Origin: an uncultured bacterium
GTDB lineage: Bacteria; Patescibacteriota; JABMPQ01; CAVVCK01
DNA length: 64,000 bases
NCBI GenBank assembly: GCA_963746775.1
Contig: CAVVCK010000001.1
Coordinates: forward strand, 83,050-147,049
Direction of reading: 5' to 3'
A program made the position numbers and the translations under genes. The notes beneath the pieces are model-generated. The model saw only the letters and a list, made by a program, of their open reading frames with translations, was not told the DNA's origin and did not search any database. Position 1 is the first letter of the stretch, and the number at the start of each line of letters is the position of its first letter. Below, piece after piece: positions 1 to 10,616 of this stretch.

Positions 1-347
1 CCAGTATTTTCCATCTACCCCGCCTTCTTTATCTCCTATGGCGTCAACAGACATACCAAAATCATAGTCAGTAGTTTTGATTTCTAAAGCATCTTTTTCA
101 GCAGCTGCCTTTAAAGCGTCATAAGCTGTCATTCCTTCTCCAAAATCAACTTCGTAATTTTTTTCTTCATCACCGTAATTAATTGCTACTGTGACTGTCT
201 GTGCTGTTTGTTCACTAGCTATTTCTTGATTTTGTTCTTGATTCTGCTCTTGAGTTTGTTCCTGATTTGAAGAACACCCAGAACCCATAAATACAGTTGC
301 CCCTAACATCAAAACTAATGATAGTGATAGAAATTTTAATTTCTTCA
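1..347 (-). CDS. Partial secreted lipoprotein with a DUF4430-like (intrinsic-factor/transcobalamin beta-domain-like) putative cobalamin-binding domain. The N-terminus is in the window; the gene runs off the left edge.
   Basis: Reverse-strand ATG at 345-347. Translation begins MKKLKFLSLSLVLMLGATVFMGSGCSS (signal peptide plus lipobox-like Cys), then TVTVAINYGDEEKNYEVDFGEGMTAYDALKAAAEKDALEIKTTDYDFGMSVDAIGDKEGGVDGKYW. This resembles the conserved core of DUF4430/BtuG-like B12-binding domains. Absent from the ORF track because it is truncated by the window edge. Confidence 0.5.
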
Positions 348-375
348 TTTATTTTTCTCTTATTTAATAAATTAA

Positions 376-903
376 TTAATACTCTATTCCTTTCCTAGCT
401 TGTAAACCTTCATCATAATAATGTTTAACTTTTTTCATTTCTGTAACTAAATCTGCTTTATCTATTATCTCTTGCAAAACATTACGACCTGTTAAAACTA
501 TTTCAATGCCTTCTGGGTTTTTATTTAAAAAATCTAGAACTTCATCTTTGGAAATTAAGCCAAAATCTAAAGCTACATTTATTTCATCTAAAATTAAAAT
601 ATCAATATCTCTTGATAATACTAACTTTTTGGCAAAATTCAAGGCTTTATTTGCTAACTTCTTGTCTTCATTATTGTTATCATTTTTTCCAATAAATTCT
701 TTTCTACCAAAACTATATATTATAAAATTTGGTTCTAATTTTTTCTGTACTAACTTTTCGCCCGTTTCCTGTCCTTTCATAAATTGAACCATAACAACTT
801 TTAAACCTCGACCAACTGCTCTTAACGCTAACCCTAGAGCAGCTTTTGTTTTACCGCTACCATCACCGGTATAAACTTGTATTTTTCCTAAATATTTTTT
901 CAT
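376..903 (-). CDS. cobA: Cob(I)yrinic acid a,c-diamide (cobalamin) adenosyltransferase, CobA/BtuR/CobO family
   Basis: 175 aa. Motif YTGDGSGKTKAALGLALRAVGRGLKVVMVQFMKG and C-terminal HYYDEGLQARKGIEY are collinear with E. coli BtuR (TGNGKGKTTAAFG ... GIDY). Confidence 0.85.
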   Translation of the reverse strand: MKKYLGKIQVYTGDGSGKTKAALGLALRAVGRGLKVVMVQFMKGQETGEKLVQKKLEPNFIIYSFGRKEFIGKNDNNNEDKKLANKALNFAKKLVLSRDIDILILDEINVALDFGLISKDEVLDFLNKNPEGIEIVLTGRNVLQEIIDKADLVTEMKKVKHYYDEGLQARKGIEY

Positions 904-978
904 TCAAATTTTAAAATATTATGAAAATAACAGCTTTAAAATTTCCAATTTTTAATTCCTAATTACTAACAAAATACT

Positions 979-997
979 AAATATCCATTGGATATTT
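979..997. promoter_or_regulatory. Near-perfect palindrome AAATATCCA-t-TGGATATTT in the cobA upstream region; candidate operator
   Basis: 9-bp inverted arms with a 1-nt spacer, 76 bp upstream of the cobA start. A related TGGATATT / TTGGAAATT motif recurs at 1033-1048 and (reverse orientation) 938-950. Confidence 0.2.
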
Positions 998-1105
998 CCT
1001 TGTAATCCGAAAATTTGACATTAAAAATTTTATTGGAAATTGGATATTAGTAATTAGACATTTATAAAATAACTAAATTTCTTTTCTAAAATTTCAATCT
1101 AACTT

Positions 1106-4100
1106 CTATCCACACTTCGAATACCCGCAAGATCGACAAAGCATACATCCTTCGCTAAATTCCAACATATTTCCACAATCCGGACACTCAGGTGCATGAC
1201 CCATATCAGCTAAAGAAGAAATGTCTTCTGCCTTTTTCATTACTTTTTCATTCGCCATAGATTTTTCAGAGACAGGCTTAATTTCATCAGCTATAATATT
1301 TTCTTTCCTATCTTCAACTTCTAACTTTAATTGATCTTTTTCTGATTTAATTTCTTTTTGCTCAACTTGTTTTGGATAATCTAGCGGCAATTTATTTTGC
1401 TCTCTTTTTGTGTGTTCTGTTAATATCTTAGCTATAGCATCGGGAATAGATAAGACTGTTCCTTTTTTAGTCCACGATGGCATAGGACCTCTTATTCCAG
1501 ATATTTGTTTAATAACTTCTGAAGCTGGAATATTTGATCTAAAAGCTAGCGATATAAGACGACAAATTGCTTCTGAATCAGCTGCAAAAAAACCACCTGA
1601 TTTTCCTATAGTTGCAAATACTTCAAAAGGCTTTCCTTCTTCATCGCTATTAATAGTTACATATAAACCTCCATAGGCAGTCTTTAATTCATAAGTAGAT
1701 CCAGCGACTACTTCTGGACGTGGTTTTTTCGGTAAAGACTGAACAATTATTTCTTTAATGACTTTTTTCTCGTCTTGTTTTGAATCTCCTGTTTTTAAAA
1801 CTTGTAAATCTTTACAACCATCTCTATAAACTGTTACCCCTTTGCAACCTAGCTTATACGCCTCTTTATAAACCCTAGCTATATCTTCTTTTTTAGCATC
1901 ATTTTTAAAGTTTATAGTTTTTGATACTGCATTGTCTGTATATTTTTGAAAAGCAGCTTGTATTTTTAAATCCCATTCAGGCTCAATATCCCTAGATGTT
2001 ACAAAAATCTTTTTTAAATCATCAGGTACTTCATTCAAATTTTGAATACTACCTTCTTTAAATATTTTTTTAACTAATTCTTTGCTATAAAATCCTCTTT
2101 TTTCAGCTTCTGCAAAAAATAACGGATGAATTTCAAATTGATTAACCCCACCCATTGAATTTTCCCGACTATAAACTAGTGCATAGACAGGTTCTACACC
2201 AGATGAACAAGAAGCTACAATACTAGTATACCCAGTAGGCGCAATTGTTGTCACTGCAGCATTACGCATCGTTTTAAATTTCTTTCTTTTATACCAAACA
2301 CTTTCTCTAAAGTTTAGAAAGTTGCCCTTTTTTTCTCCTAATTCTTTTGAAGTTCTATGCGCTTCACGAGTTACAAATTTTATTAATTCGCAAGCAATTT
2401 CTACAGCCTTATTAGAATTATAGGGAATCCCCATTTTAATCAACATATCAGCAAAACCCATTACACCTAATCCTATTTTTCTATTATCATGAGCCATTTT
2501 CTTCATCTGAGGCAAAGGAAATGTATTGAGATCAATAGTATTATCTAAATAATGAACACCATAATTAACTGTTTCTTTCAACTTATCATAATCAATTACA
2601 TATTTATCTTTTTCTTCTTTTAACATCCTAGATAGTACAATCGAACCTAGATTACAAGTTTCATACGGCAGCAAAGGTTGTTCTCCGCAAGGATTAGTTG
2701 TGTCTATTTTACCTAAATGTGGAGTAGGGTTATCTTTCTCAATCCTGTCTAAAAACAAAACTCCTGGATCACCAGTATTCCAAGCATGATCTACTATTAA
2801 ATTAAATATTTCTCTGGCTTTTACCTTTTTTACTTCTTTTCCTGCACTTGGATCTATTAAAGAATATGAGCTCTCTTCCTTTAGCGCTCGCATAAACTTA
2901 TCAGTCACTCCTACGGATATATTAAAATTAGTCAGACTCACTCCATCATCTTTAGCTTTAATAAATTCTTCAATATCAGGATGATCAATATTTAAAATAA
3001 CCATGCTGCCTTGTTTTCTACCTCCTTTTGTTTTGATAGTATCTTGTGTTTGATCAAAAGCCTTCATAAAAGCCACAGGACCGGCTGCCATTTCTTGAGT
3101 CGAACCTACTGAACTATTTTTAGAACGTAATTTTGAAAAATTTATACCAGTACCACAGGTAGATTTATGTACCAAAACATTCTCTGACATTATCTTCATA
3201 ATACTCTCAATAGAATCTTCAATGGGCAAGGCGAAACAAGCAGATAAGGTTAAATTTTTATCACCAGCATTGCGTAATGATTGTCCAGAAATAAATTCTA
3301 AGCGAGACATCATTCCATAAAATTTTTCTTCTGTTTCCTTAATCTTACTTTTGTAGCCTGGATATTTTTTATCTGCTGAAGCAATAAACCCAGCTACTCT
3401 TCTAAACAATTCTTCTGGTGTTTCAATTACTTCTCCTTTATCATCTTTTTTTAAAGCTCTTTTTTCTAATACAGTCAGCGCATTATCAGCTAATTTTATT
3501 TTTGTACTCAAATTCTTTTCTTCCCTAATTTCTATAGGAGGCTCTGCTTTTTCTTCTTTTATTTTTCCAGCATTTAATATCTGTTCTTGCTTTGATCCAT
3601 CTCTGTAAACTGTAATACCCTTACAACCCAATTCATAAGCCATAACATAAGCTTTCTTAACATCCTCTATTTTAGCATTTTGAGGAAAATTAATTGTTTT
3701 TGAAACTGCGTTATCCGTATATTCCTGTGCGGCTGCTTGAATTTTCACATGCCATTCAAATGGTACATCATGAGCTGTTACAAATATTTTCTTATACTTG
3801 TCAGGTACTTCATCAATTTTTTGCAATGATCCATGTTCTTGTAATTTTTCTATCAATTTTTCACTATAAAATCCTTCTGATTTAGCTACTTCTTCAAAGA
3901 CAGGATCAATAAATATTAATGTCTTACTGGCTCTATTTTCACTGCCACTTTCAAAAAAAGTTCTTCTAGCACTAAACAATGAAAAAACTGGTTCTACCCC
4001 CGATGAAGTATTACCCACCATACTAATAGTACCATTAGGAGCAATAGTAGTAATAGTTGCATTTCTAACTTTTAATTTCTTTTTTTCAAAACTGCTACCT

Positions 4101-5380
4101 TTATAGGCAGGTAATATTCCCCTTTTTCTAGCCAAATTGCAAGATTCTTTTTCTCCTTCTTCTTTAATAAATTTCATTATCCTTTTAATTAAAACAAGTG
4201 ATTCATTGCTATTATAAGGAATACCTAGTCTATATAGACCCTGAGCATAACCCATAATGCCAAGACCTATTTTCCTTGTTTTTAATACATTCTCTCTAAT
4301 TTGAGGAAGTGGATAATTATTTAGATCAATCATATTATCCATAAAATGTATAACTGTCTTAACAGTTTTTTTCATATCATCCCAATCAATTTTTCCATTT
4401 TTTATGTGCCCCGGAAATATAATCGAACCTAGATTACATGATTCATAGGGAAGCAAGGGCTGCTCACCACAAGGATTAGTTGCTTCAATTTTACCAAGCT
4501 GCGGGGTTGGATTATCTTTTTCCAATTTATCTAAAAAAATAATTCCTGGATCAGCGCAAGACCAAGCTTTTTCGACAATTAAATTAAAAATCTTGCTGGC
4601 TGATAATTTTTTTACCTTCTTTCCATTCCTAGGATTTATTAAATAATAATCCTCATCACGCCTTACTCTTTCCATAAAATCAGCTGTCACACCAACAGAT
4701 ATATTAAAATTTTTCAATTCAGATGAACCATTCTTTAAATTAATAAATTCCAAAATATCTGGATGATCAATATTTAAAATTCCCATATTTGCTCCATGCC
4801 TTTTACCTCCCTGCAAAACTCTTGATAGCGCTTGATCAAAAGATTTTACATAATGAATAGGTCCAGCAGCAATATTAGGAATATTTTTTACTTTATCACC
4901 TTTAGGCCTAATACTAGAAAAATTAAAACCAGTACCTCCATTATTTTGCTGAATAGTGGCTGCGTTTGCTAAACTTCCGAAAATTCCTTCCAGAGAATCT
5001 TTAATTGGTACTACAAAGCAGGAAGAAAGTTGTCCTGTATTATTATTGCCGGCTTCAAATAAAACTCTACCCCCTGGCAAAAATTTTAAAGAGGCCATTA
5101 TTTTGTAAAATTTTTCCGTTGTCTCATCTAAAATTTTATTCTTACTCTTCCTTTCGGATTTATCTAAATAATTACTATCAGCTGAAGCCATAAACTTAGC
5201 TACTCTATAAAACATTTCAGCCGGGGTCTCAATTGGATTGCCCTTCTTATCGGTTTTAGTATACCTTTTATTAATTACCTCAATGGCATTTTCGGATAAT
5301 GTTGGCACAATTTCTTCTGTGATTTTATTTTTTTTGGTCATTTTATATATTAAGATAAATTTTTTAATAACAAATCCCAT
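1106..5380 (-). CDS. nrdJ: Tandem-fused double class II (adenosylcobalamin-dependent) ribonucleotide reductase, NrdJ-NrdJ. Two complete catalytic cores plus a C-terminal tail with a Cys4 zinc ribbon.
   Basis: 1424 aa. Core 1 is about aa 14-610 and core 2 about aa 631-1195. Each has the N-terminal Cys motif (SSCFVVPI / SACFALPI), the thiyl-radical motif NPCGEQPLLPYE(S/T)CNLGS, GGTGFNFS/CGTGINFS, ILNIDHPDI, NFNISVGVT and a YRDG end. The C-terminal 230 aa (ATIGKSGGF ... CPDCGNMLEFSEGCMLCRSCGYSKCG) follows core 2 only. The start may instead be the Met at 5341 (MTKKNKITEE), which removes the 31-bp overlap with the upstream gene. Confidence 0.85.
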   Translation of the reverse strand: MGFVIKKFILIYKMTKKNKITEEIVPTLSENAIEVINKRYTKTDKKGNPIETPAEMFYRVAKFMASADSNYLDKSERKSKNKILDETTEKFYKIMASLKFLPGGRVLFEAGNNNTGQLSSCFVVPIKDSLEGIFGSLANAATIQQNNGGTGFNFSSIRPKGDKVKNIPNIAAGPIHYVKSFDQALSRVLQGGKRHGANMGILNIDHPDILEFINLKNGSSELKNFNISVGVTADFMERVRRDEDYYLINPRNGKKVKKLSASKIFNLIVEKAWSCADPGIIFLDKLEKDNPTPQLGKIEATNPCGEQPLLPYESCNLGSIIFPGHIKNGKIDWDDMKKTVKTVIHFMDNMIDLNNYPLPQIRENVLKTRKIGLGIMGYAQGLYRLGIPYNSNESLVLIKRIMKFIKEEGEKESCNLARKRGILPAYKGSSFEKKKLKVRNATITTIAPNGTISMVGNTSSGVEPVFSLFSARRTFFESGSENRASKTLIFIDPVFEEVAKSEGFYSEKLIEKLQEHGSLQKIDEVPDKYKKIFVTAHDVPFEWHVKIQAAAQEYTDNAVSKTINFPQNAKIEDVKKAYVMAYELGCKGITVYRDGSKQEQILNAGKIKEEKAEPPIEIREEKNLSTKIKLADNALTVLEKRALKKDDKGEVIETPEELFRRVAGFIASADKKYPGYKSKIKETEEKFYGMMSRLEFISGQSLRNAGDKNLTLSACFALPIEDSIESIMKIMSENVLVHKSTCGTGINFSKLRSKNSSVGSTQEMAAGPVAFMKAFDQTQDTIKTKGGRKQGSMVILNIDHPDIEEFIKAKDDGVSLTNFNISVGVTDKFMRALKEESSYSLIDPSAGKEVKKVKAREIFNLIVDHAWNTGDPGVLFLDRIEKDNPTPHLGKIDTTNPCGEQPLLPYETCNLGSIVLSRMLKEEKDKYVIDYDKLKETVNYGVHYLDNTIDLNTFPLPQMKKMAHDNRKIGLGVMGFADMLIKMGIPYNSNKAVEIACELIKFVTREAHRTSKELGEKKGNFLNFRESVWYKRKKFKTMRNAAVTTIAPTGYTSIVASCSSGVEPVYALVYSRENSMGGVNQFEIHPLFFAEAEKRGFYSKELVKKIFKEGSIQNLNEVPDDLKKIFVTSRDIEPEWDLKIQAAFQKYTDNAVSKTINFKNDAKKEDIARVYKEAYKLGCKGVTVYRDGCKDLQVLKTGDSKQDEKKVIKEIIVQSLPKKPRPEVVAGSTYELKTAYGGLYVTINSDEEGKPFEVFATIGKSGGFFAADSEAICRLISLAFRSNIPASEVIKQISGIRGPMPSWTKKGTVLSIPDAIAKILTEHTKREQNKLPLDYPKQVEQKEIKSEKDQLKLEVEDRKENIIADEIKPVSEKSMANEKVMKKAEDISSLADMGHAPECPDCGNMLEFSEGCMLCRSCGYSKCG

Positions 5381-6144
5381 GAATTTTTTATATCTTCTTT
5401 TTCTAATATTTCTAAACTAAGAAAATTATTATAATTAATTTTTTTAAGAAAAATAATAAACTCTTCTAAATTTAAATCTCCTTTTTTCTGAAAACCAAAA
5501 TGGGCTTGACCATTTTTTATAGCATTATGCAAATGAATATTTTTAATACTATTTTTATTGTTTTTTAAAAACTTTAAAAAACTATCATTATTTTGCACAC
5601 AATGTCCAACATCTATAGTAAAATTTATATCGGGAATAAAAGATTTAATTTTTGATAATTCGTTAAGCAACACAGGATATGATATCTGAGTTGTTTTCTT
5701 TAAAGAAACATTTTCTATTGCAATGCTCATTTTATTTGCTGCATATTTTATTATTTGTTGAAAATTTTCTATAAATGTTTTTCTAACTTCGTTTTTACTT
5801 AAAAATAATGGATAAGATCCAGCATGAATAGTAACTACCTTTGACCTTAATCTAACTGCAATATCTATTGTCTTTTTTAAAATATTAATTGATGCTTTGT
5901 TAACCTCTTTATGAGTAGATATTAATGTTAAATTTATAAAAGGAGCATGAATAATTATTTCATAATTAGAAAGTTTCTTTTTTATCCATTCTATTTCCCT
6001 AATATTAAGATCATTTTCTTCTAACCATATTTCTATAAAATCAAGACCGTTAAACTTGTTTAAAAAATTAATATATTCTTCCCATTTATCTTTATTATAG
6101 GATGTAAGATTTAGGAAAAGTCCTTTTTTAAATAATCTGCTCAT
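5350..6144 (-). CDS. Xylose-isomerase-like TIM-barrel protein resembling AP endonuclease family 2 (endonuclease IV/Nfo-like)
   Basis: 264 aa. IIIHAPFINL, IAIENVS, IDVGHCVQNND, IHLHNAIKNGQAHFGF are roughly collinear with the metal-ligand motifs of Nfo/TIM-barrel sugar-phosphate isomerases. Sits inside the nrd operon. Confidence 0.55.
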   Translation of the reverse strand: MSRLFKKGLFLNLTSYNKDKWEEYINFLNKFNGLDFIEIWLEENDLNIREIEWIKKKLSNYEIIIHAPFINLTLISTHKEVNKASINILKKTIDIAVRLRSKVVTIHAGSYPLFLSKNEVRKTFIENFQQIIKYAANKMSIAIENVSLKKTTQISYPVLLNELSKIKSFIPDINFTIDVGHCVQNNDSFLKFLKNNKNSIKNIHLHNAIKNGQAHFGFQKKGDLNLEEFIIFLKKINYNNFLSLEILEKEDIKNSWDLLLKNLS

Positions 6145-6145
6145 T

Positions 6146-7528
6146 TTATTTACAATATCTTTTAAATAATTCTGGTGAAAATATTTTATCTCTAATATGA
6201 GATTTTAAAAATCTTGCATTGAACTTATCTTTTCTTTCTTTTTCAACCCTCTGCTCTAAAATATGTCTAAATTTTTCTATTTTTTTAATTGTGTCTTTAT
6301 CACCACCATAATACACAGAAAAACAGGGTGATATTAAATTTTGATATAAACCAAGATAAAAATGACCATTATGAATTATATAAGATGGTAACTCAGCAAT
6401 AACTCCACCACTAACTTCGTTTTGTGGAGAAACTTGATGTTTATATTTCTCTCCCAAAAAATTCTGTTGTAAACAAGTTTTATAAGGAAATTTTTTAGCT
6501 CTAAAATCTTTCATAATAACAACTTCTTCCTCATCTTTTTTAAGCTGCTCTTCAAAATCATCTCCGATCATACTATCCAATATTGTTGGAGTAAAAAAAT
6601 GTATGCTAACATCAAAATCCGTACCCTTAGCTTTAAATTTTTGACTAAATATATCGGCTTTGCCCCCCCCTAATAACTTTTTAAATTCTTCCATTCTACC
6701 AAAAAAAATATTTCTTTCTTCTTCAGTGAAAATGTTTGAACCTTTCAATTTTTTCCATAAATTTTCTTCAAATTTATTTTCTTCCGCAACTACAATTAAA
6801 TCAATATCTGAACTGCCAGTTTCATCTAATAATTTTCTTATATTATAAAAAGGACCATAGCTCATAGAACCACCAACAATTACACTATCCGCCAAACCTT
6901 CCATCAGATTTGTTAACTCTTTTATTTTATAAAATCTCTCTAAAGTGCCTTCAACACTTTCAATAAAACTCGGTTTTCTTTTTCCCAACTCTTTTCCTTT
7001 GCTTATTTTAAGAAAATCTGGCAAACTTGGTTTTAATTCAGTTAAAATGTCTATTAATTTTTCACCAAAAACTTTGATATCTATGTTTTCCTTGATATGG
7101 CACATATAAACTTGCTCAAGAAAACTTGCTAACCAGGCCTTTATTAATATTTCATGATAATTATGCAAATCAAAATGTTTTACTTCATTTAATAAAGAAG
7201 TAAATCTATTTTCCCAATTAGAAACATCAACATCTTTTAATATCTCATCAAAATTCTTTTTAAATCTTTCTATCCCCATAAACTCGTCTACCATCTTACC
7301 TTCTGTATAAACAAAATTAGCATCGCTATTTAAAAATTCTCTCTCAATATTTCTTAATTCATCTATATTTTTACTTTCTGTTATTTTCTTTAAGAGAGTC
7401 AATGCTTCTTTCTCTTCTAAGAGTCCTTGAAAATATAAATCATGGATATTTATCTTTAAATTTTGCTTTAAATTTTCAAAACTATCCAAAGATTCAATTT
7501 TTTCATTAGTTGTTTCAAATTCAATCAT
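6146..7528 (-). CDS. Pol-beta-superfamily nucleotidyltransferase-domain protein of unknown specificity (divergent). Embedded between RNR genes.
   Basis: 460 aa. Central VGGSMSYGPFYNIRKLLDETGSSDIDLIVV is a G[GS]...DxD nucleotidyltransferase motif with an insertion. A later acidic site is TDFDVSIHFF. Flanked by a 200-aa helical N-terminal region and a 150-aa C-terminal region with no recognisable family. Confidence 0.5.
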   Translation of the reverse strand: MIEFETTNEKIESLDSFENLKQNLKINIHDLYFQGLLEEKEALTLLKKITESKNIDELRNIEREFLNSDANFVYTEGKMVDEFMGIERFKKNFDEILKDVDVSNWENRFTSLLNEVKHFDLHNYHEILIKAWLASFLEQVYMCHIKENIDIKVFGEKLIDILTELKPSLPDFLKISKGKELGKRKPSFIESVEGTLERFYKIKELTNLMEGLADSVIVGGSMSYGPFYNIRKLLDETGSSDIDLIVVAEENKFEENLWKKLKGSNIFTEEERNIFFGRMEEFKKLLGGGKADIFSQKFKAKGTDFDVSIHFFTPTILDSMIGDDFEEQLKKDEEEVVIMKDFRAKKFPYKTCLQQNFLGEKYKHQVSPQNEVSGGVIAELPSYIIHNGHFYLGLYQNLISPCFSVYYGGDKDTIKKIEKFRHILEQRVEKERKDKFNARFLKSHIRDKIFSPELFKRYCK

Positions 7529-7537
7529 TATTTTTTA

Positions 7538-9301
7538 CTATTTAATATAATTCAGTACCTGTTTATCACGACTTCTATCTCTGTAAACTGTCGTTCCCTT
7601 ACAGCCAAGCTTATAGGCTAATTTAAATACTTCTTCAACATCATGTAGCGTTGCATCGTGTGGTAGATTAACTGTTTTAGAAACAGCATTGTCGGTATAT
7701 TTTTGGAAAGCTGCTTGAATTCTAATATGCCACTCTGGTGCAATATCGTGAGCTGTTACAAATACCTTTTGCATTTCCTCGGGTATTCCTTCCATATTTT
7801 TTATAGTTCCACGCTCAGCCACTTTCTCCATTAGATCTTTAGAGTAAAGCCATTTTTCTTTAGCAACTTTTTCAAAAATAGGATTTACTTCTATTAATTC
7901 ATCTTTGCCTAAATCCATAATATTTTTTCTAACATATACTAACCCGAAAATAGGTTCAATCCCAGAAGTACAATTAGCAAAGATACTGGTTGTCCCGTTT
8001 GGTGCAATGGTTGTACAAGTTGCATTTCTTAATTTTTTAAAACCTTTTTTTGGCCAAATACTTTTATTAAAATTTGGGAAGTTGCCTCGCTCCTTGGCAA
8101 GCTTAACCGAAGCATCTCTAGCTTTCTTTTGAATAAATTTCATCAGTTTCTCCGCAAACAAAATTCCTTCTTCTGAATTATAAGGAATATTAAACTCAGC
8201 TAGCATATCAGCAAAACCCATTACACCTAACCCAATTTTTCTGTTTCCCCGATTTATTTCTTTAATTTCAGGAAGCGGATAATGATTTACATCTATGGAG
8301 TTATCCAGAAAATGAACTGCTACATCAATTACCCTCTCTAATCTGTCATAGTCTAATTCTTTTTCACCATTATTATCTACTACAAATTGAGATAAAATTA
8401 TAGAACCCAAATTACAGGCTTCATAAGCAAGCAACGGTTGCTCTCCACATAAGTTAGTTGCTTCAATTCTACCTAATCCAGGTGTCTGATTATATTTATT
8501 TACTGTATCAATAAAAATTATTCCTGGCTCAGCTGACTTCCAGGCTTTTTCCACAATTAAACTAAAAATTTTACGCGCACTTAAGTTCTTTACTTTTTTA
8601 TTGTTTCTAGGATTTATCAAATCATAATTTCTGCCATTCTTTACAGCTTTCATAAATTTATCAGTAATAGCGACTGATATATTAAAATTATTAAGAGCAT
8701 TATTCCCTTCTTTAGATTTTATAAAATCTAAAATATCCGGATGATCTACTCTTAAAATTCCCATATTACCAGCTCTTCTGGTACTAGCATTATTAACTAC
8801 AGTTTCGGAACTAAAATCATAAAGTTTCATAAAAGATAGGGGGCCAGAAGATTTTCCTTTGGTTGTTGAAACCAAATCCTCAGCTGGTCTTAATTTTGAA
8901 AAATCATAACCTATTCCTGCTCCAGTTTTATGTAAAAATGCTGCATTCTTTAGCGTTGTATAAATTGAATCCATTGAATCTTCAATTGGCAGTACATAAC
9001 AGGCCGACAATTGTTGTAATTCTCGACCGGCATTACGCAAAGTCATGCCAGATAAAAATTCTAGATTATTCATTACTTCAAAAAATTCTTCTTCAGTTTT
9101 TTTGAGTTCTTGTTTTGATTTTGTATAATTTTTATCTGCTGAAGCAATATTATGAGCTATGCGTCGAAACATATCTGAGACTTTTTCATATTGACCATTT
9201 TTATTTTTTTTCAAATATTGTCTTTTTTTCATTACAGCTACGGCATTTTTAGTCAATATTGGCTCTTCTGCTATTTTTTTAATTTTCTTTTGTTTTCCCA
9301 T
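7538..9301 (-). CDS. nrdJ: Third class II ribonucleotide reductase paralogue (NrdJ core only, no C-terminal zinc-ribbon tail)
   Basis: 587 aa. LSACYVLPIED, TGAGIGYDFS, ILRVDHPDI, NFNISVAIT, ATNLCGEQPLLAYEACNLGS (Pro to Leu in the NPCGE motif, cysteines retained). Ends VYRDRSRDKQVLNYIK. Confidence 0.85.
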   Translation of the reverse strand: MGKQKKIKKIAEEPILTKNAVAVMKKRQYLKKNKNGQYEKVSDMFRRIAHNIASADKNYTKSKQELKKTEEEFFEVMNNLEFLSGMTLRNAGRELQQLSACYVLPIEDSMDSIYTTLKNAAFLHKTGAGIGYDFSKLRPAEDLVSTTKGKSSGPLSFMKLYDFSSETVVNNASTRRAGNMGILRVDHPDILDFIKSKEGNNALNNFNISVAITDKFMKAVKNGRNYDLINPRNNKKVKNLSARKIFSLIVEKAWKSAEPGIIFIDTVNKYNQTPGLGRIEATNLCGEQPLLAYEACNLGSIILSQFVVDNNGEKELDYDRLERVIDVAVHFLDNSIDVNHYPLPEIKEINRGNRKIGLGVMGFADMLAEFNIPYNSEEGILFAEKLMKFIQKKARDASVKLAKERGNFPNFNKSIWPKKGFKKLRNATCTTIAPNGTTSIFANCTSGIEPIFGLVYVRKNIMDLGKDELIEVNPIFEKVAKEKWLYSKDLMEKVAERGTIKNMEGIPEEMQKVFVTAHDIAPEWHIRIQAAFQKYTDNAVSKTVNLPHDATLHDVEEVFKLAYKLGCKGTTVYRDRSRDKQVLNYIK

Positions 9302-9752
9302 TTTTATTTTCTAATTTTTTTAATTCACATTCGAAGTGATAAGCATTTTTAAAATTTTTATACACTGAAGCAAAACGTAAGTAAGCCACTTCATCAATTT
9401 CTTTTAAATAATTTACTACTAAATTTCCTATTTCTCTACTTTCAATTTCATTTTTATCTAAATTTAAAATATCTTGCTCTACATAGTTAACTAACTTTAA
9501 AATATCATTTTCAGAAATAGGCCTCTTTTCACAGGCTTGATTTAAACCTTTTATTATTTTTTCTCTATTATAAGGTTCTTTACTGCCATTTTTCTTGATA
9601 ACTGATAGCTGTAATAATTCTAACTCTTCATGTGTACTAAAACGAAATTTACACTTCAAACATTCCCTTCTGCGCCTAATAATAGCACCGGCATTCGTGG
9701 CCCTAGAATCTATTACCTTTGTTTCATTATATCCGCAAAAAGGACATTTCAT
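9279..9752 (-). CDS. nrdR: Transcriptional repressor NrdR (zinc ribbon plus ATP-cone)
   Basis: 157 aa. MKCPFCGYNETKVIDSRATNAGAIIRRRRECLKCKFRFSTHE is the canonical NrdR N-terminus, followed by an ATP-cone. Overlaps the downstream nrdJ paralogue by 23 bp, so they are one operon. Confidence 0.9.
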   Translation of the reverse strand: MKCPFCGYNETKVIDSRATNAGAIIRRRRECLKCKFRFSTHEELELLQLSVIKKNGSKEPYNREKIIKGLNQACEKRPISENDILKLVNYVEQDILNLDKNEIESREIGNLVVNYLKEIDEVAYLRFASVYKNFKNAYHFECELKKLENKNGKTKEN

Positions 9753-9918
9753 GGGATTATTTTACGTTTTATTTTTAAAATAATACTTATTTATAATTTA
9801 AACTTTTCTCGTATAGCCTATCCCAAATTACCAATTTACAAATTACAATTTTCAAATAAATTACAGTATCCAAACTTCAAATAACCAAAAAACGCTTAGA
9901 ACAATAAAATCTCTAGAA

Positions 9919-9969
9919 TACTATATCTTGTGGTGTATATTTTATTTTAATACTATATATATGGGTGTC
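9919..9969. promoter_or_regulatory. Two candidate NrdR boxes (TA-rich cores ending in GTGT) arranged as direct repeats 32 bp centre-to-centre, upstream of nrdR
   Basis: tACTATATcttgtGGTGTa at 9919-9937 and tACTATATatatGGGTGTc at 9951-9969. The 32-bp spacing matches the usual tandem NrdR-box layout. Similarity to the consensus acaCwAtATaTwGtgt is only partial. Confidence 0.4.
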
Positions 9970-9979
9970 AAATAAATTT

Positions 9980-10006
9980 AAAATAAGGGTTTTTGCCCTT
10001 ATTTTA
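9980..10006 (-). terminator. Hairpin (ataaggg-tttttg-cccttat) with flanking T/A runs; probable terminator downstream of scpB
   Basis: 7-bp stem and 6-nt loop about 80 bp after the scpB stop. T-rich on both sides. Confidence 0.35.
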
Positions 10007-10079
10007 AAATAATAACAACTTTATTGATCAAAATAACTATACGTTGAACAAATAATTAGCTGTGGAAAACTATATAATA

Positions 10080-10616
10080 TTAATCCTGACTTTCAGATTT
10101 AACTAATATTTCTTTACTTAATGTCTCATAATCAGGCAATTCCCTACAGGAGCTAATGCCCAAATGCCTTAAAAATTTAAAAGAAACTTGATATATTGAT
10201 TTTCTTGAATCTTTTTCACTCTTAGCCTTATCAATTAATCCTCTAATCATTAAATTTCTCAAAATATAAATACAATTTACCCCTCTGATTAATTCTATTT
10301 CAGCTCGAGTAATTGGTCCTCGATAAGCAATAATAGCTAAAGTTTCTTGCGCTATTTTCGACAAGTCTTCCTGTAAATCTTCAGTCACTAAACTTTTTAC
10401 AAAACTAGCATAATTTGGATTTGAGACCATTTGTACTGCATCATCTTTAGCTATTAAAATAATTCCTCTCATCTCTTCTTTATATCCATTATTTAAATCA
10501 TTTAGCTCGTCTTTTACTTCTTTGTCAGTCATTTTTGTTATTTGAGCTAACTTTTTTATTTTAATTGGCTTACCCGAAGTAAATACTAGACTTTCTAATA
10601 GATATTTATTGTTCAT
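10080..10616 (-). CDS. scpB: Segregation and condensation protein B
   Basis: 178 aa. LESLVFTSGKPIKIKKLAQI ... AIIAYRGPITRAEIELIRGV is the ScpB winged-helix pattern. Overlaps scpA by 11 bp. Confidence 0.85.
   Translation of the reverse strand: MNNKYLLESLVFTSGKPIKIKKLAQITKMTDKEVKDELNDLNNGYKEEMRGIILIAKDDAVQMVSNPNYASFVKSLVTEDLQEDLSKIAQETLAIIAYRGPITRAEIELIRGVNCIYILRNLMIRGLIDKAKSEKDSRKSIYQVSFKFLRHLGISSCRELPDYETLSKEILVKSESQD

Follow-up and report, generated by a model that had tools for sequence, protein, structure and literature searches.

A tandem fusion of two class II ribonucleotide reductase cores, encoded together with a third core, in Patescibacteria

Organization of the ribonucleotide reductase locus

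The stretch of DNA analyzed here, referred to as the window, comprises 64,000 nucleotides (nt) at positions 83,050 to 147,049 of contig CAVVCK010000001.1 (assembly GCA_963746775.1), from an uncultured member of the Patescibacteriota. The window has a GC content of about 30% and contains a group of genes, all on the minus strand, for class II (adenosylcobalamin [AdoCbl]-dependent) ribonucleotide reductase (RNR). The largest of these is an open reading frame (ORF) of 1424 amino acids (aa) that encodes two NrdJ catalytic cores in series, here called A and B, followed by a C-terminal cysteine-rich domain (CRD). A third core, C, is encoded by a gene of its own. The features of these two genes are as follows.

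1106-5380, minus strand: tandem ORF (core A, core B, and tail), 1424 aa (Pfam, NCBIfam)
3581-5341, minus strand: core A, aa 14 to 600, with C121, N302, C304, E306, and C315 and loop 2 LQGGKRHGAN (NrdJ_Z)
3503-3580, minus strand: A-B linker, aa 601 to 626, charged and predicted to be disordered (from the predicted local distance difference test score, pLDDT)
1766-3502, minus strand: core B, aa 627 to 1205, with C715, N896, C898, E900, and C909 and loop 2 KTKGGRKQGS (NrdJ_Z)
1109-1765, minus strand: C-terminal CRD, aa 1206 to 1424, 219 aa (Pfam TSCPD, cysteine motif)
1412-1678, minus strand: TSCPD/IscU-like domain of the CRD, aa 1235 to 1323 (Pfam, 73 bits)
Between the TSCPD domain and the zinc finger, minus strand: variable spacer of the CRD
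1112-1186, minus strand: six-cysteine zinc finger of the CRD (conserved cysteines)
7538-9301, minus strand: nrdJ-C, stand-alone, tail-less class II RNR core, 587 aa, with NLCGE (TIGR02504)

Pfam and NCBIfam resolve the 1424-aa product into two full units of Ribonuc_red_lgN plus Ribonuc_red_lgC, then a TSCPD domain, and then a terminal zinc ribbon, and according to a hidden Markov model (HMM) made from the three cores, core A spans aa 13 to 611 and core B aa 620 to 1205. The NPCGE motif lies at aa 302 in core A and at aa 896 in core B. The original prediction, which was made from the letters of the window, had described two NrdJ cores in series, each with an N-terminal cysteine (C121 and C715), an NPCGE loop, and a partner cysteine (C315 and C909), with a tail on the second core only. 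It had also described a tail-less third core of 587 aa, with NLCGE, two genes upstream. All of this holds, the third core is on the same strand and has the five catalytic residues as well, and the locus does contain three genuine NrdJ cores in one predicted transcription unit. The terminal Cys4 zinc ribbon of that description stands as a zinc motif but not in its cysteine count, as the tail has instead the six cysteines of the known NrdJ CRD.

In its longest form, with a start at 5380, the tandem ORF shares 31 nt with the gene upstream. The true start is likely to be M14 at nt 5341 (MTKKNKITEE...), which would give a product of 1411 aa; this start is preferred because the overlap with the upstream gene then vanishes and because the N termini of homologs and the HMM register agree with it.

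Distribution and origin of the tandem gene

The three cores are mutually 48 to 49% identical in protein and about 65% identical in DNA, and a collapsed or misassembled recent repeat is therefore excluded. Among 5.8 billion protein clusters searched, at least 120 tandem matches were found, originating from NCBI, ENA, JGI, and Logan assemblies, and all 120 matches listed carry two full-length cores, at 45 to 87% identity to the tandem protein of the window. The source record also calls the latter as a single 1424-aa gene, on a contig of 547 kb. The named hosts are all Patescibacteria and include the Parcubacteria group, Kerfeldbacteria, Andersenbacteria, and Dojkabacteria/WS6. The homolog set used below consists of 121 tandem proteins that were split into cores by HMM. 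An intein or a polyprotein was considered as the cause of the unusual length and was rejected, since the linker is a charged low-complexity segment of 12 to 73 aa and the two cores and the CRD account for every residue.

In a neighbor-joining tree of 360 cores, the A cores formed one clan and the B cores another, and core C grouped with other tail-less single-core proteins in a clan of 68 members that was nested among canonical NrdJs bearing a CRD or an N-terminal ATP-cone. With two rogue sequences left out, bootstrap values were 98 for A, 99 for B, 99 for A plus B against the rest, and 100 for the C clan; with the rogues kept, they were 97 for A and 84 for A plus B. The rogues are the B cores of P0053 and P0078, which sit at the base of the B clan and lower its bootstrap value from 99 to 3 when both are included; they may be divergent or recombinant lineages. 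Identity to conventional single-core NrdJs is about 49 to 51% for A and B and about 59% for C. No stand-alone A-type enzyme was found when 1.84 billion representatives were scanned with core A by HMMER; in the same scan, the tandem family amounted to two or three clusters at 50% identity, and the best single-core match was only 50% identical. The scan also returned long NrdJs matched in several stretches, which are single cores that, judging from the match coordinates, are probably interrupted by inteins.

In a set of 30 genomes, the three cores diverge in step (r = 0.92 to 0.94 for the correlation of their pairwise distances), with nearly equal mean divergence (0.38 for A, 0.37 for B, and 0.36 for C). 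In every genomic context read (8 of 8), the tandem gene is directly preceded by a gene for a single-core NrdJ; these contexts include the window, L001 to L004, and L006 to L009, among which L003 is from Dojkabacteria. At least 30 of the best 45 tandem matches are on contigs of the same size as a contig with a C-type match. In the closest relative (L001, 85% identical), the C and AB genes are 18 nt apart, and in other lineages different small genes stand between them. The simplest reading of these sequence comparisons is that duplication and fusion took place once, long ago, and that all three paralogs have since been inherited together vertically. By the same comparisons, the tandem fusion is ancient, of single origin, and phylum-wide, and no peculiarity of the genome from which the window comes.

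Class membership and catalytic competence

Each core alone spans positions 2 to 606 of the 606 in the NrdJ_Z model (TIGR02504), with scores of 637.8 bits for core A, 642.5 for core B, and 678.1 for core C against a cutoff of 399.95; the model for ribonucleoside triphosphate reductase (RTPR), the monomeric type, gave 54 to 71 bits against a cutoff of 340. The residues numbered C134, N320, C322, E324, and C333 in Thermotoga maritima NrdJ are all present in A, B, and C. Among the 121 tandem proteins, neither core departs from these five catalytic residues (118 to 121 homologs for the positions in core A and 121 of 121 for core B), the sole gaps being due to three N-terminally truncated entries. 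The proline of NPCGE varies: nine B cores have V or T in its place, and the C clade has Q, L, or V. The class Ia RNR of Escherichia coli has leucine at the position equivalent to P321, and NLCGE is therefore compatible with activity and gives no sign of inactivity.

In an AlphaFold2 model of A plus B (mean pLDDT, 89.1; predicted template modeling score [pTM], 0.57), both cores fold well. The fold is the ten-stranded alpha/beta barrel of RNRs, and the top 21 Foldseek matches of this model were all chains of T. maritima NrdJ, with template modeling scores (normalized to the target) of 0.82 to 0.85, and 1xje is also the closest structure by sequence (E = 1e-114). Between the window and its 85%-identical relative, the ratio of nonsynonymous to synonymous substitution (dN/dS) in cores A, B, and C was 0.030, 0.047, and 0.056, respectively. 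Within the tail, the TSCPD domain had a ratio of 0.048 and the zinc finger one of 0.021, whereas the spacer reached 0.18. These values are approximate because dS is near saturation (proportion of synonymous differences, about 0.7). No further RNR gene was found in the 64-kb window.

Judged by these alignments and models, the three cores are full-length NrdJs of the dimeric type with intact thiyl-radical and redox cysteines, and none of them looks decayed or merely regulatory. Two outcomes that the original prediction had entertained are thus not supported: that some cores have become regulatory, against which stand the catalytic residues invariant in 121 homologs, the dN/dS values of 0.03 to 0.06, and the equal rates of the three cores, and that one core is simply a decayed duplicate lacking essential residues, as every core aligns with all five. 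A third, its caution that the tandem arrangement might be a misassembled duplication, fares no better given the low identity between the cores and the at least 120 clusters from independent assemblies with the same architecture.

One cysteine-rich tail for several cores

The six cysteines of the tail (C1399, C1402, C1412, C1415, C1418, and C1423) form the motif CPDC-x9-C-x2-C-x2-C-x4-C, and the tail as a whole matches the tail portion of PRK08665. The six-cysteine motif closes 119 of the 121 tandem proteins, and a single CRD per protein was likewise found in 119 of 121; in the window, cores A and C are without any CRD. According to Loderer et al. (2017; PMC5704485), the CRD of NrdJ is 150 to 220 aa long, has six fully conserved C-terminal cysteines, binds zinc, and passes electrons to the active site, and Burnim et al. 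(2022; PMC9669993) describe it as an IscU-like (TSCPD) domain joined to a zinc finger. The former also showed, for NrdJd of Stackebrandtia, that electrons can pass from the CRD of one subunit to the active site of another, efficiently in higher oligomers induced by dATP and poorly in dimers.

The linker between A and B is 12 to 73 aa long in the homologs (median, 27), is rich in K, E, A, S, and T, and is free of cysteine in 104 of 111 proteins; in the window protein, pLDDT falls below 50 at residues 588 to 611 of the AlphaFold2 model. The C-type proteins stop about 12 residues past the barrel, and 56 of 70 are free of cysteine there. As far as can be read from these sequences, most genomes have one CRD available to three cores. 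The earlier proposal that one tail serves several active sites fits the single CRD, the cysteine-free linkers, the mostly cysteine-free ends of the C-type proteins, and the published transfer between subunits. No ORF of the thioredoxin or glutaredoxin type was found in the 64-kb window.

In ten tandem proteins of the Dojkabacteria type, the linker is replaced by an insert of about 216 aa with a full Ham1/ITPase domain. These are P0114 (context L004, 8001-12815), P0090, P0107, P0110, P0112, and P0116 to P0120, with the domain located at 620-805 in P0090 (43.6 bits) and at 601-787 in P0114 (24.3 bits). Such an insert would put a "house-cleaning" enzyme of the deoxynucleoside triphosphate (dNTP) pool, a noncanonical nucleoside triphosphate pyrophosphatase, inside the reductase.

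Divergence of the specificity region

Dimeric class II RNRs are alpha2 homodimers with specificity sites at the interface formed by the alphaA/alphaB four-helix bundle. The region corresponding to T. maritima positions 141 to 216 (Tm141-216) comprises alphaA, loop 1, alphaB, and loop 2 and thus the specificity site and the dimer interface; the interface helices were located from AlphaFold2 secondary structure and not from crystal contacts. The cores have diverged most in this region. Relative to a narrow canonical comparison set of 50 sequences, the canonical-invariant positions kept by each core inside and outside this region were as follows.

Core A: 54% in Tm141-216 and 68% in the rest (Fisher P not significant)
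Core B: 34% in Tm141-216 and 69% in the rest (Fisher P = 2.5e-4)
Core C: 59% in Tm141-216 and 81% in the rest (Fisher P = 0.01)

At helix positions such as 153, 154, 157, 189, and 198, core C is canonical-like, and A and B are unlike each other. Residues D141, R171, and R207 of the effector site do not vary in any clade. Each clade, however, has a loop 2 of its own, which is conserved inside the clade.

Canonical loop 2: KQGGTRRGAN
Clade A: LQG.KR.G.N, with Q203 kept in 99%
Clade B: R or K, G or T, R or K, then GGR..GS
Clade C: a one-residue insertion, then N, N or S, and A.TRR.GN

How the cores may be assembled

The reading that we favor, with moderate confidence, is that the three cores constitute an ancient, vertically inherited module of AdoCbl-dependent RNR paralogs in which A and B form a tethered heterodimer, the tail of B re-reduces A and B, and C is a homodimer. 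Cores A and B, joined by a flexible tether of 12 to 73 residues, would pair through the usual alphaA/alphaB four-helix bundle, and this pairing would produce a covalent heterodimer with two nonequivalent specificity sites and loop 2 elements. The single six-cysteine CRD on B would re-reduce the active-site disulfides of both A and B. Core C would probably form its own homodimer, because it keeps the more canonical interface, and its active site would be recycled by the AB tail, within a higher oligomer, or else by a different reductant.

A number of points weigh against this arrangement. The pTM of the A plus B model is 0.57 and the linker is disordered, so that AlphaFold2 defines no A:B interface and speaks neither for nor against a defined intramolecular dimer. 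Divergence in the interface region is enriched in B and C and is not significant in A, with the residues assigned by helix position. The published cross talk of the CRD is efficient in higher oligomers only and not in dimers (PMC5704485). The C-type enzyme of one relative (L006, 7814-9970; P0233, 718 aa; GCA_965231055.1) keeps an IscU-like TSCPD domain with four cysteines and no six-cysteine zinc finger, and sharing of the AB tail with C is therefore not universal; this protein, in which the finger loop is NVCGE, looks from its sequence like an intermediate in the loss of the tail by the C-type paralog. More generally, the binding of AdoCbl, the activity of the cores, and their oligomeric state are all predicted properties.

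An alternative that we regard as less likely is that A and B do not pair within the chain. Each would instead bind a core of another tandem chain, either its own counterpart or the other core, or would bind C, so that (AB)2 or mixed AB:C complexes result and the fusion mainly enforces stoichiometry and colocalization. It draws on the same low pTM and disordered linker, on the tolerance of the linker for a Ham1 domain of about 216 aa, and on two published properties, namely, the CRD-dependent tetramers and hexamers formed by NrdJd (PMC5704485) and the possible dimerization of IscU-like domains. However, the shortest linkers have only 12 to 15 residues, and the divergence of the interface is asymmetric, being much greater in B than in A, a pattern that A:B pairing explains more readily than B:B' pairing does.

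Two further proposals, each of which we consider doubtful, give a larger role to the loop 2 variants. The first, which extends the obligate hetero-oligomer suggested by the original prediction, is a single complex in which the AB covalent heterodimer would associate with C2, one tail would recycle three kinds of site, and the loop 2 variants would divide specificity. If true, this would be a hard-wired alternative to the universal allosteric switch of one site and four substrates, evolved in symbionts with minimal genomes. The second is a division of labor in which the four substrates, or else the responses to effectors, are shared out among the cores by way of their different loop 2 sequences, so that specificity is partly hard-wired into the paralogs. 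The clade-specific yet internally conserved loop 2 argues for it, as does the fact that three equally constrained cores are always co-encoded, in the contexts read, in genomes of about 0.5 to 1 Mb. On the other side, D141, R171, and R207 are invariant in all three cores, and effector binding is therefore probably retained, any link of the loop 2 variants to particular substrates is presumed, and the canonical comparison set is narrow, with 50 sequences.

It is improbable that one or two of the cores are dead pseudoenzymes with a purely structural or allosteric role, comparable to that of Rnr4 toward Rnr2 among the beta subunits of yeast. Of the 199 positions invariant in the sampled canonical NrdJs, A keeps 121 and B 117 (about 60%) and C keeps 141, and Q203 is missing from B and P321 from C, as such a role might allow. 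Against it stand the five catalytic residues, which are fully conserved in A and B of the 121 proteins and present in C, the dN/dS values of 0.03 to 0.06, the passing of the equivalog model by each core, and the compatibility of NLCGE with activity. An assembly or annotation artifact, whether a misassembled tandem duplication or adjacent genes merged by sequencing error, has a negligible chance of being correct, given the divergence of the cores, the continuous two-core ORF in at least 120 clusters at 45 to 87% identity, and the single gene in the source record; no point in its support was found, and in the one relative whose tandem gene is annotated in two pieces (L009; ORFs of 486 and 936 aa), the break falls inside core A and not at the junction of the cores. 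That split gene (L009, 9791-14114) is probably due to a frameshift or an assembly error; alternatively, it may be a genuine case of pseudogenization or splitting.

Regulatory sequences and neighboring genes

The remaining features of this part of the window are as follows.

9917-9971, minus strand: putative promoter with NrdR-box-like repeats (sequence match)
9279-9752, minus strand: nrdR, 157 aa, repressor of nrd genes with a zinc ribbon and an ATP-cone (TIGR00244, Pfam)
6146-7528, minus strand: 460-aa nucleotidyltransferase-like protein, cassette gene 1 (weak structural matches)
5350-6144, minus strand: 264-aa xylose-isomerase-like TIM barrel protein, cassette gene 2 (AP_endonuc_2)
376-903, minus strand: cobA/cobO, ATP:corrinoid adenosyltransferase, 175 aa, which makes AdoCbl (Pfam CobA_CobO_BtuR, 214 bits)
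1-348, minus strand: 5' part of a lipoprotein gene truncated by the window edge (orthology to a gene of L001)

The nrdR product scored 183.9 bits with the TIGR00244 NrdR equivalog model (cutoff, 124.65) and matched Zn_ribbon_NrdR and ATP-cone in Pfam. Upstream of it, a promoter-like site with TTGACA starting at 9971, a 16-nt spacer, and TAAAAT ending at 9944 matches the consensus at 11 of 12 positions and is the best such site in positions 1 to 10200; it is directly preceded by a terminator-like hairpin of scpB (10008-9977). Two 20-nt repeats, ACACCCATATATATAGTATT and ACACCACAAGATATAGTATT (9949-9968 and 9917-9936, respectively), start 32 bp apart and overlap this site. They are the sole matches in the 64 kb, with 0.14 expected by chance, and similar boxes occur upstream of nrdR in L001 (7650-7740). 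NrdR regulons have paired NrdR boxes about 31 to 32 bp apart in the nrd promoter. The repeats resemble such boxes and are probably NrdR boxes. No minus-strand terminator was found between the promoter-like site and position 1, and no cobalamin riboswitch or any other Rfam family was found in the operon or in the whole window. The three cores and the adenosyltransferase look to be cotranscribed from a promoter that is seemingly under the control of NrdR.

In the relatives, nrdR is usually upstream of the C and AB genes and cobA is downstream, with cobA following the tandem gene in L001, L002, L006, L007, L008, and L009. The product of the partial lipoprotein gene has no Pfam match itself, and it is 60% identical (E = 7e-47) to that of L001 14871-15323, which carries PF14478 (DUF4430, transcobalamin-like). 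In relatives, the DUF4430 gene follows cobA and is itself followed by genes for DUF6580 and dCTP deaminase (L001, 14871-17058). This gene order suggests a combined module of B12 capture, adenosylation, and dNTP synthesis, and the presence of cobA and a transcobalamin-like lipoprotein gene in the same predicted operon fits, as indirect evidence, the use of AdoCbl as the radical generator by these cores.

The two genes between core C and the tandem gene (5350-7528) are absent from that position in the 85%-identical relative, and the pair occurs also in a contig of Buchananbacteria (L010, 6001-8174), among HicA/HicB toxin-antitoxin genes and with no nrd genes nearby. Because of this absence and recurrence, the cassette is read as an insertion specific to the genome of the window and as lying outside the conserved RNR system. 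On the same grounds, a role of its genes as RNR accessories, in reduction or in cobamide remodeling, was considered and rejected. The 460-aa protein has no match in Pfam, NCBIfam, PADLOC, or PDB sequences; its family, of 27 clusters from bacteria of the candidate phyla radiation and one archaeon, has an invariant GGS..YG...D.D motif. Its AlphaFold2 model (pLDDT, 89.6; pTM, 0.82) gave weak structural matches only, enriched for nucleotidyltransferases of the Pol-beta type (the CD-NTase CdnD, kanamycin nucleotidyltransferase, TUT7, and OAS). Its 264-aa partner, a TIM barrel of the AP_endonuc_2 type, scores 68 bits with CbiR, below the cutoff of 105. The cassette may be a mobile or defense-like module.

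GC skew and AT skew are negative over nearly the whole window, in which the genes are on the minus strand, and are positive only at 48 to 52 kb, where there are three plus-strand ORFs. The skew thus tracks the coding strand, as its sign flips only where genes switch to the plus strand.

Relation to known systems and implications

The closest known systems are the dimeric NrdJs with a CRD from T. maritima (PDB 1XJE/3O0O) and Stackebrandtia nassauensis (NrdJd; PMC5704485), which have the same barrel, catalytic residues, and type of CRD and, like the cores described here, are without the insertion of the monomeric type. The present system differs from them in that two nonidentical cores, of about 44 to 49% identity, share one polypeptide and a single CRD, loop 2 and alphaA/alphaB have diverged differently in each core, and a third, tail-less core is always co-encoded. 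In the split NrdJa plus NrdJb enzymes of the Pseudomonas aeruginosa type, a known fission of the CRD (PMC5704485), the CRD works unattached to its core, and core C together with the AB tail would be analogous. Those enzymes, however, arose by fission into a core and a separate tail, whereas here two cores are fused and the CRD remains on core B, so that the likeness is functional only, through possible reduction in trans. Some Frankia and Alphaproteobacteria, according to the same paper, have two NrdJd paralogs with a CRD on one only. As here, a tail-less NrdJ stands beside one bearing a CRD, but these are separate single-core genes with no tandem fusion and no conserved operon as far as described.

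Monomeric RTPR from Lactobacillus leichmannii (NrdJm) also builds a specificity site within one chain. It does so with one core and an inserted domain that mimics the helices of the partner, whereas here the "partner" would be a second complete core with intact catalytic residues. The tandem ATP-cones of class I RNRs such as P. aeruginosa NrdA (Burnim et al., 2022) likewise arose by internal duplication in the alpha chain followed by divergence. There, the repeated unit is a regulatory domain of about 90 aa whose inner copies lose ligand binding; here, it is a catalytic unit of about 590 aa, and both copies keep the catalytic residues. In a targeted reading of the two most comprehensive analyses of NrdJ and of the RNR family, the word "tandem" was found for ATP-cones only. 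A full-text literature search, with subscription-only papers outside its coverage, found no description of a tandem fusion of two complete NrdJ cores, as the original prediction had also known of none. The component parts are all known, i.e., the NrdJ core of the dimeric type, the CRD, control by NrdR, and the neighboring cobA; the tandem fusion of the cores is the undescribed element.

The annotation of tandem proteins reads simply "vitamin B12-dependent ribonucleotide reductase," and their length and internal repeat could cause surveys of RNRs to drop or misalign them. To our knowledge, the catalytic subunit across the three RNR classes is a homodimer encoded by one gene or a monomer that mimics one, and the current picture of allosteric specificity regulation is built on a symmetric interface with two identical sites. 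Should A and B indeed pair, they would constitute the first covalent RNR heterodimer. The family would be a natural system for studying how asymmetric specificity sites and loop 2 steer the choice of substrate, how far one reducing tail can reach, and what the physiological reductant of the CRD is. The host genomes are about 0.5 to 1 Mb in size, and about 6 kb of them is spent on three RNR cores that are all under strong selection, which suggests that the supply of dNTPs in these episymbionts is organized unlike that of textbook bacteria.

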